Below are positions 39,836 through 58,788 of a DNA stretch of 64,000 nt, piece by piece (the first letter of the stretch is position 1; every line of letters starts with the position of its first letter). Both the position numbers and the translations under genes were made by a program. This DNA is from Escherichia phage mogra, in sequence record MN850579.1; one strand, 5' to 3'. The notes below the pieces were generated by a model. That model saw nothing but the letters and a program-made list of their open reading frames with translations. It searched no databases and was not told the origin of the DNA.

Positions 39836-40471
39836 ATGAAAACTACACCAATCACTATCGCTATTGACGCAATTGTAAAACAAGCTTCATCTCTTGCCAC
39901 TATGGCTAAAGTAATTAGTCAAAACCATGCTCGTTATAATGCTATTCTAGAAACTCTTCGACGCCCTGGACTTAGTAATTATGAAAGCCGGGTAATTATT
40001 ACAGGTGTTGGTAAGAATGCTAATATCGCAACTAAAGCTTCCGAGACTTTTGCTTCACTAGGTATTCCTAGCATGTATTTGAATACCGGGCATTATTCTC
40101 ATGGTGACGCAGGATTTATTGCACCTAATGATGTATTAGTTCACATCAGTCGTTCTGGTAAGACTGAAGAAATGATAGGTGTTGCTAAACATCTTCGTAT
40201 GATTCGTCCTCAGGTTAAACAGATTCTGTTACATTGTAACCCTGACATTCCACAAGAATACGAAGCTCTTTTTGATTATACGTTCTGTACCGGTATCGCG
40301 GTAGAAGTTGACGAGAACTCTTTAGCTCCGACAATGTCTACTACATTGTTGTTAGCGCTTATCGATACGTTCGCTATCAACCTTTCGTCTGAACGTGGAT
40401 TTACCTCTAATGATTTCCTTAAGTTCCATCCAGGCGGTGCACTAGGTGCCATGTTACGAGGCGAACAATGA
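39836..40471 (+). CDS. SIS-domain sugar-phosphate isomerase, arabinose-5-phosphate isomerase (KpsF/GutQ)-like
   Basis: ITGVGKNANIATKASETFASLG, HISRSGKTEE, LAPTMSTT and HPGGALG match recalled KpsF/GutQ SIS signatures; no CBS domains. Confidence 0.78.
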   Translation: MKTTPITIAIDAIVKQASSLATMAKVISQNHARYNAILETLRRPGLSNYESRVIITGVGKNANIATKASETFASLGIPSMYLNTGHYSHGDAGFIAPNDVLVHISRSGKTEEMIGVAKHLRMIRPQVKQILLHCNPDIPQEYEALFDYTFCTGIAVEVDENSLAPTMSTTLLLALIDTFAINLSSERGFTSNDFLKFHPGGALGAMLRGEQ

Positions 40472-40652: not shown

Positions 40653-42338
40653 ATGAAAAAAGCTGTTATTCTTGGTGCTGGACTGGCAACTCGTTTGTAT
40701 CCAATAACGCATCATATTCCTAAGGTGCTTGTGAACTATAAACAAGACACTATTCTGAGCAATTTGTATACAATTTATTCTGACCTTGGCGCAGATGAAA
40801 TTATTGTAGTAGTTCATTCAAAATTTGCTGAAACTGTTCGAGCTTATTGTGAGCAAGAAGGGTTCAATGTGACTATTCGTACAGTTGATGAAGCGTATGG
40901 TTCTGCTTATGCTCTTGCTAAATTACACAAAGATTTAGACGGTCATAATGTAATTGTTAACTGGTGCGATATTATTCCTGATTTTGGTTCATGGTCTTGG
41001 AATGTTAACGCAATCTATGTTAAGGGTGATGAATGTCGATATAATTTCGACGGTGAAAATATCACTAACGTAGGTTCAACAGGTGGTAATGTTGTAGGAA
41101 TTTATCAGTTCAAAGACTGGGAATTCTATATGGGTTCTACTGATGAGGAAATTCATGAATACTGCAAAGGACGTGATTTCGTAGAATTCCTTTACAGCGC
41201 CGCATTCAATAAATCAGAGCTTATGAATCTAATTGATTTAGGTGATATGCCTAAACTTGAAAAGGCTCATGAAGTTCGTGAACTTAATCGTAGTTTTAAC
41301 GCAGTTGAAATTGGTGAAGAAACTGTAACTAAATTCGCATTAACCGAACAGGGTCGAGCTCTTCAGAAAGATGAGATTTCATGGTATTTGAAAGTGAAAT
41401 CAGATTCAGTTCCTCAGTTAGTTTCTGTTAATGAAAATAACTTTGAAATGGAACGCATTAAAGGTAAGCCAGCATTTGAATATATTAAATCCAAATCAAG
41501 TCTTGCTCGTCCACAAATTGTTGATGCAATTTTAGATGCACTGAAATTCAGCACAGACACTTATTTTGTAAGTCCTGAAACTGTTCGTCGTGATTTCACT
41601 AAAGAATTCTATACGAAAGTTATTGATCGTTGTGAAAGCATTCAACCATTGATTGATTCATTTGGTAAAATCACGCATGTGAACTACACTAAGATTGGAC
41701 GTCTGAAGCCAATGCTGAAACAAGCTTTAGAACACCTTATTCGTTATCATAACCGTTCTCAGGGACAGTACTCTGTTATTCATGGCGACCCGAACTTCAG
41801 TAATACTATGATTACTGATAATGGCGAAGTCAAGTTTATCGACCCTCGTGGATATTTTGGTGAAACCAAGATTTACGGGCCGAAATTGTACGACGAAGCT
41901 AAAGTGCTTTACGCTGTTTCAGGTTATGATGAATTCAACGCTAATCCGACCTGGGGGCAGTTTACTATTGATGAAACAACTTGTAATGTGACTATTAACA
42001 TCAATCCATTAGTTTACAAATATGGAAAGATGAGTTCGTTTAACGAGTATCATCATTTGGCAGTGGCAATTATCTGGATTGCATTAGGTGGTTATTTCAA
42101 GAATAATCCACTTAAAGCGGTAGCCGCATATTATAAAGGTATGGAACTTCTGACTAAGCAATTACGTAACATGGGCCGTGTACTTCAGGACGGCTCTATT
42201 AGTTATGACGTAGCAGAACCTGTAACGGCTACTCTGATTACAAAAAATCCTGGTAAGTGGGTACTAACTGATAAAGAAACTGGTGTTTCCTATCGTCCAA
42301 TAGGTGGCGATATCACTCATCAATGGGAACGAATCTAA
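40653..42338 (+). CDS. bifunctional sugar-1-phosphate nucleotidyltransferase / APH-fold sugar kinase
   Basis: N-terminal LGAGLATRLYP...PK (GxGxR NTP-transferase motif); C-terminal VIHGDPNFSNTMITDNGEVKFIDPRG (kinase catalytic and metal loops); 561 aa. Confidence 0.72.
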   Translation: MKKAVILGAGLATRLYPITHHIPKVLVNYKQDTILSNLYTIYSDLGADEIIVVVHSKFAETVRAYCEQEGFNVTIRTVDEAYGSAYALAKLHKDLDGHNVIVNWCDIIPDFGSWSWNVNAIYVKGDECRYNFDGENITNVGSTGGNVVGIYQFKDWEFYMGSTDEEIHEYCKGRDFVEFLYSAAFNKSELMNLIDLGDMPKLEKAHEVRELNRSFNAVEIGEETVTKFALTEQGRALQKDEISWYLKVKSDSVPQLVSVNENNFEMERIKGKPAFEYIKSKSSLARPQIVDAILDALKFSTDTYFVSPETVRRDFTKEFYTKVIDRCESIQPLIDSFGKITHVNYTKIGRLKPMLKQALEHLIRYHNRSQGQYSVIHGDPNFSNTMITDNGEVKFIDPRGYFGETKIYGPKLYDEAKVLYAVSGYDEFNANPTWGQFTIDETTCNVTININPLVYKYGKMSSFNEYHHLAVAIIWIALGGYFKNNPLKAVAAYYKGMELLTKQLRNMGRVLQDGSISYDVAEPVTATLITKNPGKWVLTDKETGVSYRPIGGDITHQWERI

Positions 42339-42724
42339 TGCACCGCGTAGAAAACATGCTTAATCTTTGTTTTGATGTCGATGATTGTATAACAGAGTGG
42401 AATAACAATCGTGATTACGTGAACTTCAAGCCAGACGTCGAAATGGTGTCTGCCATTAATGCCCTGTATGATGCAGGGCATACCATAACGCTTTACACTG
42501 CTCGCGGTATGAAGTCAGTCGGTCCTGGTCGTATAGCAATTGACATTCTCCCAAGTCTGATTCAGAACTTGGCAAACATTGGCTTGAAGTACCATAATTT
42601 GCTAACACATAAACCAGTATATGATTGGATTATCGACGACAAAGCTATGCGTCCTGACGAATTCAAAGCTCTTATGAATAAAGGCGAATTCGAAACATTT
42701 AAATCATATAAACCGAATCTATAA
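42338..42724 (+). CDS. HAD-superfamily phosphatase
   Basis: Motif I CFDVDDCIT, Thr/Arg motif LYTARG, C-terminal DD (WIIDDKA); ATG 42338 overlaps upstream stop (TAATG). Confidence 0.6.
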   Translation: MHRVENMLNLCFDVDDCITEWNNNRDYVNFKPDVEMVSAINALYDAGHTITLYTARGMKSVGPGRIAIDILPSLIQNLANIGLKYHNLLTHKPVYDWIIDDKAMRPDEFKALMNKGEFETFKSYKPNL

Positions 42725-42784
42725 TAATTTAAGTAAGACCTGCAAAAAAAAACCATCGCATCAATTAACGCGAGATGCAAAAAA

Positions 42785-43945
42785 ATGAATACTTTTAAAA
42801 TCGGAACGAATTTTGATTTAGCTCTTCTTGATAAAATCGTAGAGCTCAATAAAACTTATCCTAATAGCTTGATAAATGAAGTATACGGCTCTACAAGAGA
42901 AATGGCTTTTGTAGCAGCCAGACCTGATTTTAGGCTTCCTGACATTGACAAAAAGATGTTAGAAGATTATGTTAAACGTTGTAACGAATTAGGTATTTGC
43001 TTTAACTATACACTCAACACGATAAATCCTGGTTCAAAAAGAGAACTAGTTGAGTGGAAGAAGAAAGCTATTCAGGATTATGTTCAGTATCTTTGGTCAA
43101 TAGGCGTATGGCGTATTACTATCGCTAACCCTGTTGTTATGGAAATTGTTCGTGAAGTCAATAAAGACATTGAGATTGAAGTTTCAACAATTCTACATGT
43201 CGATGCTGTAACTCAAATCAAATACTTGCATGACCAGTATAATATCAAAAAGGTCTGCTGTGGAATTCATAAGAACCGTTCAGTTTCTTTCCTGAAGCGT
43301 GCAGCAGAGTTTTGCAATAAGAACAATATAATATTTGAAGTTCTTGTAAATGAGTTCTGTTCTAATGCTGGTAAAGGGTATACAACACATTGTAGCTATC
43401 GTGACTCTTGCTATATTTTCCATAGTACTGATGTTACAGCTGATGATGCTAAATCCTTAAACGGATATCCAATGCAGCACTGTATTAAAGCTCGTGATAC
43501 AGACCCATTTAACTGGTTGAGAACTCGTTTTGTTCGTCCTCAAGATTTGAAACTTTATAATGATATCGGTATCACTCAATTCAAAGTTTCAGGACGTACA
43601 GGTAGCACAGACTACATTTTGAAAGTTCTTGAAGCATACGCTTCTGAAAAGTTTGAAGGTAATTTGTTAGAACTGTGGAAGCCTTTAGAGACTATTTTCA
43701 CTCTTGAAAACGAAACTGAGTTTTCACATACAGTAAATATTGAAACCTCTTTGTTAGATGGCTTTTTAGAAAAAAGGTGGTTCAGACATCCAGATTTCGA
43801 TTGTGCTAATGAAATCTGCGGGACGACGTGTACATATTGTGAAAGATATTATAAACGTCAATTATCTAAAAACGGGTTAGCAGAAAACTCTATATCTATT
43901 ATTGATATAACTAACTCTGATGACGCTTTGAGGTACCCGGAATGA
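42785..43945 (+). CDS. peptidase-U32-family protein (family includes O2-independent hydroxylases)
   Basis: Block pattern FNYTLNT...ITIANPVV...EIEVST...VLVNEFC...G...HCSYRDSC parallels recalled U32 TIM-barrel signature; second cluster CANEICGTTCTYC. Confidence 0.5.
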   Translation: MNTFKIGTNFDLALLDKIVELNKTYPNSLINEVYGSTREMAFVAARPDFRLPDIDKKMLEDYVKRCNELGICFNYTLNTINPGSKRELVEWKKKAIQDYVQYLWSIGVWRITIANPVVMEIVREVNKDIEIEVSTILHVDAVTQIKYLHDQYNIKKVCCGIHKNRSVSFLKRAAEFCNKNNIIFEVLVNEFCSNAGKGYTTHCSYRDSCYIFHSTDVTADDAKSLNGYPMQHCIKARDTDPFNWLRTRFVRPQDLKLYNDIGITQFKVSGRTGSTDYILKVLEAYASEKFEGNLLELWKPLETIFTLENETEFSHTVNIETSLLDGFLEKRWFRHPDFDCANEICGTTCTYCERYYKRQLSKNGLAENSISIIDITNSDDALRYPE

Positions 43946-44181
43946 TTTCTAGAAAAACTTTTAACCACCGACTTAATGAAGAGATTTTGACTATGAAACT
44001 GAACACTAATGAACAAATTCTTAAAAAGGCCCTGATGGGCCTGTTTGAAACTAAAGCGGCTAAAGTGATTAAAGAACCTGTTCAATTGGAATACTACGCT
44101 GATGCATTTCTTCATAGTGTTCTTGGAAGTATCGATGCTGAATCTTTACGTTATATCAACATTGTCAAGAAATTCAAATAA
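43942..44181 (+). CDS. hypothetical small protein
   Basis: ATGA overlap with U32-like gene; 79 aa; no motif. Confidence 0.45.
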   Translation: MISRKTFNHRLNEEILTMKLNTNEQILKKALMGLFETKAAKVIKEPVQLEYYADAFLHSVLGSIDAESLRYINIVKKFK

Positions 44182-44223: not shown

Positions 44224-44940
44224 ATGGGAAAACATAACACAATGAAATATATCAAAGCCGCAGATTTTCAAACCGCATTTAAAGCAGTCAATCGTGAAAT
44301 TTTAGAAAACCCGGAATTCGTAACTGATTCTCGTATTGGACGTTGTAATGAAATTGGGTCTATGACAGTAGTTGTTGACACTCCATCATCATTCAAAATG
44401 ACCGACCCACGTATTAACCGCATCTCTTATGAATATGCCGAAGACTTCTGGAAGTTTATGATTTCCGGTGGTACCAACGCAGAAGAAGCGTTTAAGGCAT
44501 ATCCTAATGTCGCTAAATTTATTTCTAAACCAAAATCAGATGTTTTGCCGGCGAACTTCAACACTTTCTATGGTCCTCGCATTGCGGCCCAATTACCAGC
44601 TCTTCTAAAAGAACTTAAAGAGAAGCCTAACTCTCGAAGAGTTGTGTTCCAAATTCTAGAAAGTTCTGATCAGGCTTTGCTTGATTCGGACGAAACGCTT
44701 GAATATCCATGTACTGACTCAGTGACTTATTATATTCGTGATGGTAAGCTTTATACCCACTGTCATATGCGTTCTCAGAACTGTGCTGTTGTTATGCAGT
44801 TGGATTTTTATCTCCAAGGAAAATTACTTCATTATATCGCTAACGAATGTGGTGTAGAAGTTGGTGATTATACTCATACCATGGTAAGTGCCCATGTGTT
44901 TGAACGTGATTTTGATTATGTTAAAGGATTCCTTGACTAA
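44224..44940 (+). CDS. thymidylate-synthase-fold pyrimidine C5 enzyme, dCMP hydroxymethylase-like, divergent
   Basis: PNSRR phosphate loop; catalytic Pro-Cys (YPCTD); MRSQN...QLDFY with Asp at the ThyA Asn177-equivalent position; EVGDY...H. Confidence 0.78.
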   Translation: MGKHNTMKYIKAADFQTAFKAVNREILENPEFVTDSRIGRCNEIGSMTVVVDTPSSFKMTDPRINRISYEYAEDFWKFMISGGTNAEEAFKAYPNVAKFISKPKSDVLPANFNTFYGPRIAAQLPALLKELKEKPNSRRVVFQILESSDQALLDSDETLEYPCTDSVTYYIRDGKLYTHCHMRSQNCAVVMQLDFYLQGKLLHYIANECGVEVGDYTHTMVSAHVFERDFDYVKGFLD

Positions 44941-45839
44941 TGGCTATTTTCCGCGTACCAATCTTGAGTATGCGGTCTTATGAAACTGGACAGTATGCTA
45001 TCCTTAAGGATGGCAACTTCCAACTTCATTTGCACCGTGCTAATCCAGGCGATGTGATTACATATCCACGTAATGCATCTGATATTAAAGAATGTGAACG
45101 TCTTTTCCCAGAATTTAAGTTTGTTCCATTATGGTATAAAGATAACGCGTATAACACTCGTAAATATTTCTGGTCCGAAAATGAATTTGTGGTTGATTCA
45201 TTAATTGCTTATTATGATTGTGATTTTCTAATCACAGATATCACTGGATATAACGGCGCTTTTGATGTAGAATTCAATTTCAATATCACGGCAGACCCTA
45301 ATAAACCACGTTTTTATATTGGCGAATTCTTAAAAACCGATATGTTGTCAGTTAATAGTTCACTTCAAACTACTGTGTTGAATGAACGTCAAAAAGAAGT
45401 GCTGGTTAACGCAGGTGCAGATGGTAATAAGATTATCGTAACTCAGAAAGTTATACGTCCTTCCATCATGCAGCGTCTTGTAGGTGATTTGGCTCCTATT
45501 CATCTAGATGGTATTTTTCATCCATTTCGAATTAGTGACCCGTGCTATCGTTTTGAACAAGTGGTTGAATGTGCAATTCAATTAGGCCAACCGCTTTATA
45601 TAACCGATCCAAATAATAGCTTCGACAGAAATAAGTATCCTGAAGAAGCGCTGATTCGAATTTTTAAACCAACTAAAACTGAGTACTATCAAATTCTTAA
45701 AGGACGTCCGAAGATTCAATATTTCGAAAATCCTGAAGAAGTATTTCATCCAGGTCTTGGTGAGTTCATCTACTTTAATGCTTTAATTTCTTCGCCGTAT
45801 AATATACCTAAATACGAAGATGTCGTAATCGAGGAATAA
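44940..45839 (+). CDS. hypothetical protein (299 aa), candidate DNA sugar transferase
   Basis: TAATG-coupled to the TS-fold gene; no recognisable motif; function inferred from context only. Confidence 0.5.
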   Translation: MAIFRVPILSMRSYETGQYAILKDGNFQLHLHRANPGDVITYPRNASDIKECERLFPEFKFVPLWYKDNAYNTRKYFWSENEFVVDSLIAYYDCDFLITDITGYNGAFDVEFNFNITADPNKPRFYIGEFLKTDMLSVNSSLQTTVLNERQKEVLVNAGADGNKIIVTQKVIRPSIMQRLVGDLAPIHLDGIFHPFRISDPCYRFEQVVECAIQLGQPLYITDPNNSFDRNKYPEEALIRIFKPTKTEYYQILKGRPKIQYFENPEEVFHPGLGEFIYFNALISSPYNIPKYEDVVIEE

Positions 45840-45840
45840 A

Positions 45841-46389
45841 ATGGCTAAAATTATTTTAGTAGATGGCCCGGATAATGCCGGTAAAACAACTTTCATTAAT
45901 GACATAATGGAAATTAGTGAAAGATATGTAAAGATTGATTTCCCTAAACGAACAGTTGATGGACGTTTCGATGTTAAGTCTCGAAATGAAGTTGGTTGTT
46001 TCGAAACGATGTTGAATTATTTAGACCCTACTAAGATTTATCTGTTAGACCGTGGATATATTAGTAACTGGGTTTATGGACGTATTCGACAAGATGCGGA
46101 CTCTGTTCTTGATGTTTATGAGCAGGATTATGTTCGTCTTTGCCAAAACCATGATGTGTTCACAATTATTTTAACACGTAACGAAATGACTGAAAGTTTT
46201 GAAGACGACCTTATTACTTTGTCTTCATTCGGTTTTAATACAGTCATTTCACATTTTGAAGAGTTTGCAATTCATAACAAAATCCAAACGTATCAATTAC
46301 TTAATCATGATGGTGCTAACAAAGTTATAGGATTTAATGCAAGCGAACGTAATGGTTTGATTACAGAAATCATCAAATGGGCTCGTTAA
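45841..46389 (+). CDS. P-loop nucleotide kinase (thymidylate-kinase-like)
   Basis: P-loop VDGPDNAGKTT; DRGY motif (LLDRGYISNWVYGR) reminiscent of Tmk DRY/DRH; 182 aa. Confidence 0.62.
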   Translation: MAKIILVDGPDNAGKTTFINDIMEISERYVKIDFPKRTVDGRFDVKSRNEVGCFETMLNYLDPTKIYLLDRGYISNWVYGRIRQDADSVLDVYEQDYVRLCQNHDVFTIILTRNEMTESFEDDLITLSSFGFNTVISHFEEFAIHNKIQTYQLLNHDGANKVIGFNASERNGLITEIIKWAR

Positions 46390-57889: not shown

Positions 57890-58041
57890 CTGAATTGGAA
57901 TAACCGGATGGAACTCAGAACCATTATAACACATAAAAAATTAAAGCATTTTACGAAAAAAGAGTGTACACTACCTGAGGGCATGATATTATAAGCTTAT
58001 CAGCTAAATGACCTAACGTCCGTAAGACAGAGGAAAATATT

Positions 58042-58788
58042 ATGTTATCAAATAATAAAATTAACAAAATCAATCGTCGTCTTGACCACACCAGAGCTTC
58101 TGCGAAGAGACGCTCTAAGGATTTTAACTTAGACTTTAATTACCTTAAAAACATTCTTGACCAAAAGGTCTGCGCTTACTCAGGTGAATCTTTTAATAAC
58201 TCTGTTGAAGGTGAGAAATTATCCTTAGAACGTTTTAATAATGATATAGGCTACATTAAAGGCAATGTTATCCCAGTTAAGAAAAAATATAACACGGCTC
58301 GTTCTGATTTAACATTAGAAGAACTTATTGTGAAACGTGATGCCATTGCAAGACGTATCGCTAATCCTTCTGCCCGTAAAGTAGAGAAACTTAATCTCGA
58401 TGAGAAGAAATGGGCCCAAATTAAAAATGTTTATGGTACTATTTTAAAAATCCGAGCAAAACGTGAAAATCGTGTTAAGCATATGGCGAACATGATGAAA
58501 AATCAACCTTTATCTAACGAATCTAAACTTAGAATTGTTGCTTTGAAAGCACGCATTAATGGTTCACATCAAGCAGAAGGCCATGAACTTACTAAACTCA
58601 ACGTTCTTCTTAAAGGCTCTGACTGGAAAACTAAAACTAAATTAACTGACGCTGAATCGCTTTTCGATACATATGATAAAGTTATCCAAGGTCTGCAACG
58701 TTTTGAAAAGATTGGTTTCATTGGTAAATTAAAATTGAAACGTGGCTTACCACTTAGCGCATCATTATTCCAACTGATTAAAGGTTAA
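58042..58788 (+). CDS. hypothetical basic protein (srd position)
   Basis: 248 aa between Mod genes and dda; LERFNNDIGYIKGNV motif of uncertain meaning. Confidence 0.55.
   Translation: MLSNNKINKINRRLDHTRASAKRRSKDFNLDFNYLKNILDQKVCAYSGESFNNSVEGEKLSLERFNNDIGYIKGNVIPVKKKYNTARSDLTLEELIVKRDAIARRIANPSARKVEKLNLDEKKWAQIKNVYGTILKIRAKRENRVKHMANMMKNQPLSNESKLRIVALKARINGSHQAEGHELTKLNVLLKGSDWKTKTKLTDAESLFDTYDKVIQGLQRFEKIGFIGKLKLKRGLPLSASLFQLIKG

Follow-up and report, generated by a model that had tools for sequence, protein, structure and literature searches.

A U32-family protein in the DNA-modification cassette of an RB69-like coliphage is a candidate prephenate-dependent, oxygen-independent hydroxylase

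What does a U32-family protein do inside the DNA-modification cassette of a T-even coliphage? The window analyzed here, a 64,000-nt stretch of Escherichia phage mogra (MN850579.1), derives from an RB69-like member of Mosigvirus. Between the DNA polymerase and UvsX genes it carries a 6.6-kb cassette that is 98-98.5% identical to that of phages such as JK45 and Bas46 and that encodes, in order, a SIS isomerase, an NTP-transferase/kinase, a phosphatase, the U32 protein, a 79-aa ORF, a ThyA homolog, a glycosyltransferase and a kinase (Table 1). The original prediction, which relied on motifs only, described a 386-aa U32 protein with two cysteine clusters encoded within this cassette and suggested that it performs an oxygen-independent hydroxylation. 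The ATG-initiated gene was confirmed by the open-reading-frame listing, the strings quoted for its product (FNYTLNT, ITIANPVV, EIEVST, EVLVNEFC, HCSYRDSC and CANEICGTTCTYC) were all present in the translation, and the tightly packed genes around it on the same strand bear out its placement inside the cassette. By synteny, its counterpart in RB69 is RB69p050.

Table 1. Features of the cassette and of the U32 protein, with positions numbered from the first nucleotide of the window.
Feature	Position	Strand	Basis or remark
SIS-domain arabinose-5-phosphate isomerase, counterpart of RB69 gp55	39836..40471	+	Pfam SIS 38.9 bits; PMC13326640
Bifunctional NTP-transferase/kinase, AfhE-like, counterpart of RB69 gp52:53	40653..42338	+	NTP_transferase 39.1 bits, weak kinase matches; PMC13326640
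Phosphatase, AfhF-like, counterpart of RB69 gp51	42323..42724	+	Synteny, Bas46 annotation, PMC13326640; no Pfam match
U32-family protein, 386 aa, counterpart of RB69p050	42785..43945	+	Proposed prephenate-dependent, O2-independent hydroxylase
Peptidase_U32 Pfam profile region, aa 94-286	43064..43642	+	Pfam match; hhalign to E. coli RlhA
Cys site 1 (C192, C203, C209, C233), putative [4Fe-4S] ligands	43358..43483	+	Conservation, RlhA alignment
Cys site 2, CX4CX3CX2C (C340, C345, C349, C352), putative second Fe-S or metal site	43802..43840	+	
79-aa ORF, phrog_8601, unknown function	43942..44181	+	Start overlaps U32 stop (ATGA)
ThyA homolog, counterpart of RB69 gp48	44224..44940	+	Pfam Thymidylat_synt 56.9 bits; function from PMC13326640
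Putative DNA arabinosyltransferase 1, counterpart of RB69 gp46:47	44940..45839	+	Synteny, PMC13326640 Table 1; no Pfam match
Nucleotide (thymidylate-like) kinase, counterpart of RB69 gp45	45841..46389	+	Annotation in relatives; PMC13326640 Table 1

The chemistry served by this cassette has been described in RB69, whose DNA carries arabosylated (arabinosylated) 5-hydroxycytosine and not hydroxymethylcytosine (Lee et al., NAR 2026, PMC13326640). In that work, RB69 gp48 was found to be a 5-hydroxy-dCMP synthase that needs flavin (FMN) and O2 and incorporates 18O2, and this is the only step of the published pathway shown to require O2. Because gp48 and a kinase suffice for 5hodC formation in aerobic E. 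coli (PMC13326640), the U32 protein is unneeded in air. NDP-arabinose is accounted for by the SIS isomerase, the NTP-transferase/kinase and the phosphatase, by analogy with AfhE and AfhF of HY126, for which the GenBank record gives no pathway names. In PMC13326640, RB69p050 itself is mentioned only in Table 1, where it is labeled "Sugar or heterocycle reductase", matched to 5D88 and left without comment; the Discussion names RlhA and TrhP as other routes to pyrimidine hydroxylation without tying them to RB69p050. We found no experiment on the U32 protein in the accessible literature (He et al. 2026 and Mahler et al. 2025 lie outside this scope and might contain one), and full-text searches found nothing relevant that joins phage U32 proteins with chorismate mutase or prephenate with phage 5-hydroxycytosine. 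The gene and its cassette are already known, with the gene widely annotated "peptidase", while the functional connection proposed below appears to be unreported in the accessible literature.

The family assignment was upheld by Pfam, in which Peptidase_U32 (PF01136) matched at E 7.3e-11 and 42.2 bits against a gathering cutoff of 22.4; among the matches listed, the same domain was precomputed on nearly all of 120 homologs. The expected TIM barrel was also recovered, with a fold like that of the solved U32 structure 5D88. A PDB sequence search with the protein returned no match at E <= 1, a BFVD fold search returned only the same protein in another coliphage, and an NCBIfam scan returned the UbiU model (NF047963) alone, far below threshold (18.6 bits versus a cutoff of 440). 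Family membership and fold are established, and the gene is under strong purifying selection, with a dN/dS of 0.056 within Mosigvirus and about 0.05 relative to Proteus phage PM2.

The protein contains cysteines at positions 66, 72, 158, 159, 177, 192, 203, 209, 233, 340, 345, 349 and 352, and ten cysteines are conserved within 121 close family members. A family profile search of 1.84 billion representatives recovered 493 clusters at E <= 1e-30, and conservation was scored over 129 full-length representatives at 22-49% identity. Across this set, site 1 showed C203 and C233 in 100% and C192 in 98% of sequences, with position 209 occupied by Cys in 58% and His in 41%, and each of the four site 2 cysteines was retained in 94-95%; the two clusters are thus not a product of chance. 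Alternation between Cys and His is typical of a metal ligand. Site 1 lies in an insertion between barrel strands 7 and 8 and is spaced CX10CX5CX23C versus the usual U32 pattern of CX6CX15CX3/4C, a pattern from which UbiU and UbiV also deviate. Both four-ligand sites probably hold iron-sulfur clusters, although cluster binding is inferred and the geometry of the cysteines was not checked.

A radical-SAM site at C345-X3-C349-X2-C352, with Tyr before the last Cys, was considered and rejected, as there was no Radical_SAM match at E <= 0.1. That reading is also disfavored by the location of the motif, which is C-terminal and outside the barrel rather than near an N-terminal barrel strand, and by the equal conservation of a fourth cysteine, C340, from which ligation by all four Cys would follow, and not the single open iron site of a radical-SAM cluster.

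Among the E. coli paralogs, RlhA was the best hhalign match (85%, E 6.3e-6, 206 columns spanning phage aa 53-285 and RlhA residues 45-258), compared with probabilities of 14% for TrhP, over the N-terminal 128 columns only, and 5% for UbiU; single-sequence comparisons are weak, and this ranking is only a hint. RlhA (YdcP), the 23S rRNA C2501 5-hydroxycytidine synthase, places a C5-hydroxyl on cytosine, which is the product chemistry that we propose for the phage protein, and it depends on Fe-S biogenesis as well as on prephenate. Its C169 and C176 in the U32 motif are essential, as are two cysteines of its C-terminal cluster (PMC5727448). Phage C203 and C209 align with C169 and C176, and phage site 2 parallels the C-terminal cluster of RlhA, whereas the third and fourth motif cysteines occupy different positions in the two proteins, and no other site 1 ligand aligns. 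RlhA, at 653 aa, includes DUF3656 and works on a 50S assembly intermediate; the phage protein, in contrast, is virus-encoded within a deoxynucleotide/DNA-modification cluster and consists of a single domain with a short CX4CX3CX2C tail. With 386 aa and PF01136 alone in the Pfam scan, it does not fit the RlhA subfamily as defined by a length of about 650 aa, DUF3656, a C-terminal Cys cluster and binding to 50S precursors.

TrhP offers a different parallel. Together with the unrelated, O2-dependent TrhO, this prephenate-dependent U32 protein makes the same hydroxylated pyrimidine, ho5U34, across oxic and anoxic growth, a design that the phage U32 protein and the ThyA-like flavoenzyme would mirror, although redundancy in the phage is proposed and not shown. 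TrhP differs in acting on tRNA uridine and in being a 453-aa protein with a C-terminal domain; the phage protein gave no match to this domain and fails the TrhP definition (U32 plus C-terminal domain, CX6CX15CX3C). UbiU and UbiV are O2-independent ubiquinone hydroxylases that each hold a [4Fe-4S] cluster on four Cys, and the fourth ligand of UbiU lies far downstream (C232), similar to phage C233. They form a heterodimer that needs UbiT and has a lipid substrate, whereas both metal sites may sit on the single chain of the phage protein, which by inference may do alone what the heterodimer does with one cluster in each subunit. It does not qualify as a UbiU or UbiV, given its sub-threshold UbiU score and the absence of an SCP2/UbiT-like gene from the cassette.

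The ThyA-like synthases (RB69 gp48, DLP3 gp80 and the HY126 homolog) share with the phage U32 protein a proposed product, 5hodCMP, and a location, with the window's ThyA homolog in the same cassette two genes downstream. They belong to the thymidylate synthase superfamily, which is unrelated to the U32 fold, use FMN and O2, and are also found where the U32 module is missing, in phages whose hosts are strict aerobes. The structural match noted above, Mk0906 of Methanopyrus kandleri (PDB 5D88), is a 247-aa protein of unknown function that is 14% identical to the phage protein and has neither the Cys-rich insertion nor the C-terminal cluster. For U32 proteins in general, in vitro reconstitution of direct hydroxylase activity has yet to be achieved.

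An indication of function came from the neighboring genes in other genera. Prephenate, the product of chorismate mutase, is genetically required by RlhA and TrhP and is the proven oxygen donor for UbiU/V. In other T4-like genera, a type II chorismate mutase (CM_2) gene lies in or near the slot after the U32 gene. This was the case in ten lineages, all of which exceeded the Pfam cutoff of 27 bits: Enterobacter Entb_45 (40.9 bits), Serratia LC53 (44.6), Klebsiella PWKp16 (39.5), Edwardsiella PEi26 (42.0), Escherichia EcS1 (46.2), Yersinia fHe-Yen9-01 (39.0), Pectobacterium PM2 (38.3), Providencia PSTRCR_127 (46.1), Proteus PM2 (46.8) and Shewanella Thanatos-2 (32.8). R8, R25, K36, E49, S71 and Q75 are invariant in the ten phage mutases, and we take them to correspond to the catalytic R11', R28, K39, E52, S84 and Q88 of E. 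coli chorismate mutase. The association also holds in the reverse direction, since the phage type of mutase occurs in 56 phage records and always within this modification cluster. In Thanatos-2 (L018:2824-6391), the U32 and mutase genes follow the kinase gene and sit just before uvsX, not between the phosphatase and ThyA homolog genes; having been relocated together, they therefore behave as a mobile two-gene module. No chorismate mutase was found in Klebsiella Clarke-type phages, which do have the U32 gene.

A similar linkage was observed beyond the T4-like phages. Among 35 viral loci with more distant homologs (34-55% identity), many of them on contigs of 130-290 kb, 13 have a chorismate mutase and/or DAHP synthase gene within ~1.6 kb of the U32 gene. 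Some of these are DAHP-synthase/chorismate-mutase fusions, one locus has a CM-DAHPS-U32 run of consecutive genes, and DAHP_synth_1 and CM_2 were the most frequent families when 135 flanking ORFs, taken from 26 dereplicated neighborhoods, were surveyed with Pfam. We are aware of no alternative explanation for the pairing of mutase or DAHP synthase genes with a U32 protein in a phage. That relatives adjoin prephenate-supply genes lends support to the oxygen-independent hydroxylase originally envisaged; this support is genomic only, and both the activity and the use of prephenate are inferred.

The fusions or the consecutive run are found on large uncultured viral contigs (L051:6411-7433, L053:6321-7376, L055:6332-7387 and L065:9079-10197; L072:1407-3368). 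The chorismate mutase part of phage shikimate-pathway auxiliary genes is listed in PHROGs as "unknown function" (phrog_10027). The clusters of Klebsiella Clarke_MM3 (L014) and PWKp16 (L015) keep the U32 and ThyA-homolog genes, lack an SIS isomerase gene and have a different gene order, and in Clarke_MM3 no ORF lies between the U32 and ThyA-homolog genes.

The other recurrent neighbors at the distant loci are genes for dUTPase, dCMP deaminase, UDG, thymidylate kinase, 5'-deoxynucleotidases and sugar-nucleotide enzymes. A ThyA-like gene was found within 8 kb of the U32 gene in none of the 35, and the U32 protein would therefore be the sole hydroxylase there. On one 466-kb contig (L002, 1-9086), the start of the U32 homolog overlaps the stop of a dCMP deaminase gene, after genes for DNA polymerase III alpha, UDG and thymidylate kinase and with a radical SAM/SPASM gene close by; neither a ThyA-like gene nor a chorismate mutase is among the Pfam annotations for genes called at this locus. 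On an 86-kb bacterial-looking contig (L003:5135-15428), a U32 gene is clustered with genes for GP88, methyltransferases, an NT5C 5'-deoxynucleotidase, an NMN transporter, a deoxynucleoside kinase, an alanyl-tRNA-synthetase-like protein, a radical SAM/SPASM protein, a second, faint U32 paralog and a nucleoside deoxyribosyltransferase, which may be a separate nucleoside-modification system.

In the window, the mutase slot of other genera is occupied by the 79-aa ORF, which we rejected as a chorismate mutase because it had no CM_2 or NCBIfam match and reached only 0.1% in hhalign against the ten phage mutases; its likeness to the LC53 and EcS1 mutases is limited to its first ~20 residues, which are similar to their N-terminal extension. 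Homologs of the ORF occur only in Mosigvirus, with 11 of 32 clusters cut short to 47-58 aa, and the HY126 counterpart is 40 aa. With a dN/dS versus Bas46 of 0.33, compared with 0.03-0.09 for its neighbors, it evolves about six times faster and looks like a decaying or replaced gene. No chorismate mutase was found in any frame of the 64-kb window. With its own mutase gone, a Mosigvirus phage would therefore have to draw prephenate from host PheA and TyrA.

Elsewhere in the window, weak but recurring tblastn/HMM similarity to the phage mutase queries was detected at 58568-58758 (best E 0.011), within an ORF at 58012-58785, and is probably helical or coiled-coil repeat noise.

The distribution of the gene bears on when such an enzyme would be used. 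The U32 gene occurs in 221 phage records, all at least 80% identical, and among the matches listed the hosts are Enterobacterales or Shewanella, which we take to be facultative anaerobes. Of 373 records with the ThyA-like gene, 57 are Acinetobacter and 20 are Rhizobium phages, and the syntenic clusters of Acinetobacter phage Konradin and Pseudomonas phage PspYZU05 pass from the phosphatase directly to the ThyA-like gene, without U32. The stricter proposal that the U32 gene is universal among phages of facultative anaerobes was rejected, as E. coli Dhakavirus Bp7 has the pathway without it. The observed distribution is thus suggestive of an anaerobic role and fits it imperfectly, and it rests on few independent gain or loss events that provide no statistical proof.

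Comparative genomics makes it likely, in our judgment, that the phage U32 protein is a prephenate-dependent, O2-independent hydroxylase, a function that remains inferred. The protein would act like RlhA, TrhP and UbiU/V in oxidizing an aromatic ring without O2, with the new oxygen taken from prephenate. Its most likely substrate would be the C5 position of deoxycytidylate, yielding 5-hydroxy-dCMP that would then be phosphorylated, incorporated into DNA and arabinosylated. The U32 protein would in this way serve as an anaerobic back-up for the neighboring O2- and flavin-dependent ThyA-like enzyme, an aerobic/anaerobic pairing like those of TrhO/TrhP and UbiI,H,F/UbiU,V. Of the roles considered, an anaerobic route to 5-hydroxy-dCMP fits best, but substrate and anaerobic use are both inferences that rest on no experiment, and we consider the case for this route to be evenly balanced. 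More tentatively, and with the doubts here outweighing our confidence, phages may own a prephenate-fueled, single-chain U32 hydroxylase that converts dCMP to 5-hydroxy-dCMP under anoxic conditions and lets gut coliphages hypermodify their DNA without O2; many would add a chorismate mutase or a DAHPS-CM fusion as auxiliary metabolic genes to feed it, and the ~500 diverged clusters, many on jumbo-phage-sized contigs without a ThyA-like gene near U32, would mark undiscovered hydroxylated, probably glycosylated pyrimidines in phages of anaerobes.

Other roles for the protein are disfavored, and each fails to account either for the linkage to mutase and DAHP synthase or for the loci that lack a ThyA-like gene. 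A function on the sugar side, whether as a "sugar or heterocycle reductase" or in some other step that makes or tailors NDP-arabinose, is suggested by the label in Table 1 of PMC13326640, by the Bas46 annotation "putative enzyme involved in UDP-arabinose biosynthesis" and by the position of the gene between the phosphatase and ThyA-like genes. However, AfhE and AfhF alone are enough to convert arabinose-5-phosphate to UDP-arabinofuranose according to the summary in PMC13326640. Acinetobacter phages make tri-arabinosyl-5hoC without a U32 gene, the Thanatos-2 U32 gene lies apart from the sugar genes, and nothing in such a function accounts for the chorismate mutase and DAHP synthase genes. We also know of no U32 protein that is a reductase, and we regard a sugar-side function as unlikely. 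Equally doubtful is an Fe-S redox helper that is not itself a hydroxylase and that might, for example, pass electrons to the ThyA-like flavoenzyme to reduce its loosely bound FMN. That enzyme does need reduced flavin, two conserved Cys sites would suit electron transfer, and in T4-like phages the U32 gene always adjoins the ThyA-like gene or lies within a few genes of it; yet the distant loci have no such partner within 8 kb, RB69 gp48 and its ThyA-like counterparts in Acinetobacter phages are active in the absence of U32, and the prephenate-supply linkage would again be left over.

A prephenate-dependent U32 hydroxylase could instead act on RNA, modifying phage or host tRNA U34 or rRNA and so tuning translation during infection. 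All characterized U32 enzymes of nucleic acids do act on RNA, and RlhA is the best E. coli profile match. Against this, the phage protein has no match to DUF3656, a second U32 domain or a U32 C-terminal domain, the host already has TrhP and RlhA, and the gene always lies within the DNA-modification cluster of T4-like phages and moves with it, while its distant homologs are found among deoxynucleotide enzymes. We therefore give an RNA substrate little weight. The GenBank and PHROGs annotations ("peptidase" or "collagenase-like protease") imply a U32 peptidase of the collagenase-like type, with some protein of the phage or its host to process, but the family name is historical, and the members characterized to date are factors for hydroxylation that depend on Fe-S and prephenate. 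Proteolysis would account neither for the invariant cysteines nor for the linkage to chorismate mutase or the setting in nucleotide metabolism, and we find it scarcely credible.

If the phage U32 protein is a second, prephenate-dependent hydroxylase, it would resolve a conflict over oxygen, in that the published arabinosyl-5-hydroxycytosine pathway needs an O2-dependent hydroxylase and the hosts are gut Enterobacterales that often grow anoxically. As a U32 enzyme it would be the first from a virus and the first with a link to the chemistry of deoxynucleotides or DNA, and its small, soluble substrate could allow the in vitro reconstitution that has not been achieved for RlhA, TrhP or UbiU/V. 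The phage chorismate mutase and DAHP synthase genes of "unknown function" would become cofactor-supply genes for DNA modification, and the combination of U32, CM/DAHPS and dNMP enzymes would provide a genomic marker for new modified bases in uncultured jumbo phages. For phage therapy and engineering, the prediction is that oxygen and the host aromatic pathway govern DNA modification and, with it, resistance to restriction and CRISPR.

Upstream of the U32 gene, a sigma-70-like site with a perfect TATAAT lies ~60 nt before the start codon (window 42698-42725), and a short inverted repeat (window 42756-42773) falls in the 60-nt gap that precedes the gene. Promoter and terminator scans of the cassette, these two elements included, gave no excess over shuffles, and co-transcription was not shown. 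The NTP-transferase/kinase (561 aa) and glycosyltransferase (299 aa) genes are single, intact ORFs in the window, in agreement with PMC13326640, which puts the splitting of genes 52/53 and 46/47 in the RB69 reference down to sequencing errors.

Finally, homing or putative endonuclease genes adjoin the U32 gene in several genera. One lies between the U32 and chorismate mutase genes in Proteus PM2 (L019:3696-4546), and others lie just upstream of the U32 gene in LC53 and PEi26 (L012:3854-4492 and L021:1852-2490), so the U32 neighborhood appears to be a hotspot for mobile endonucleases.
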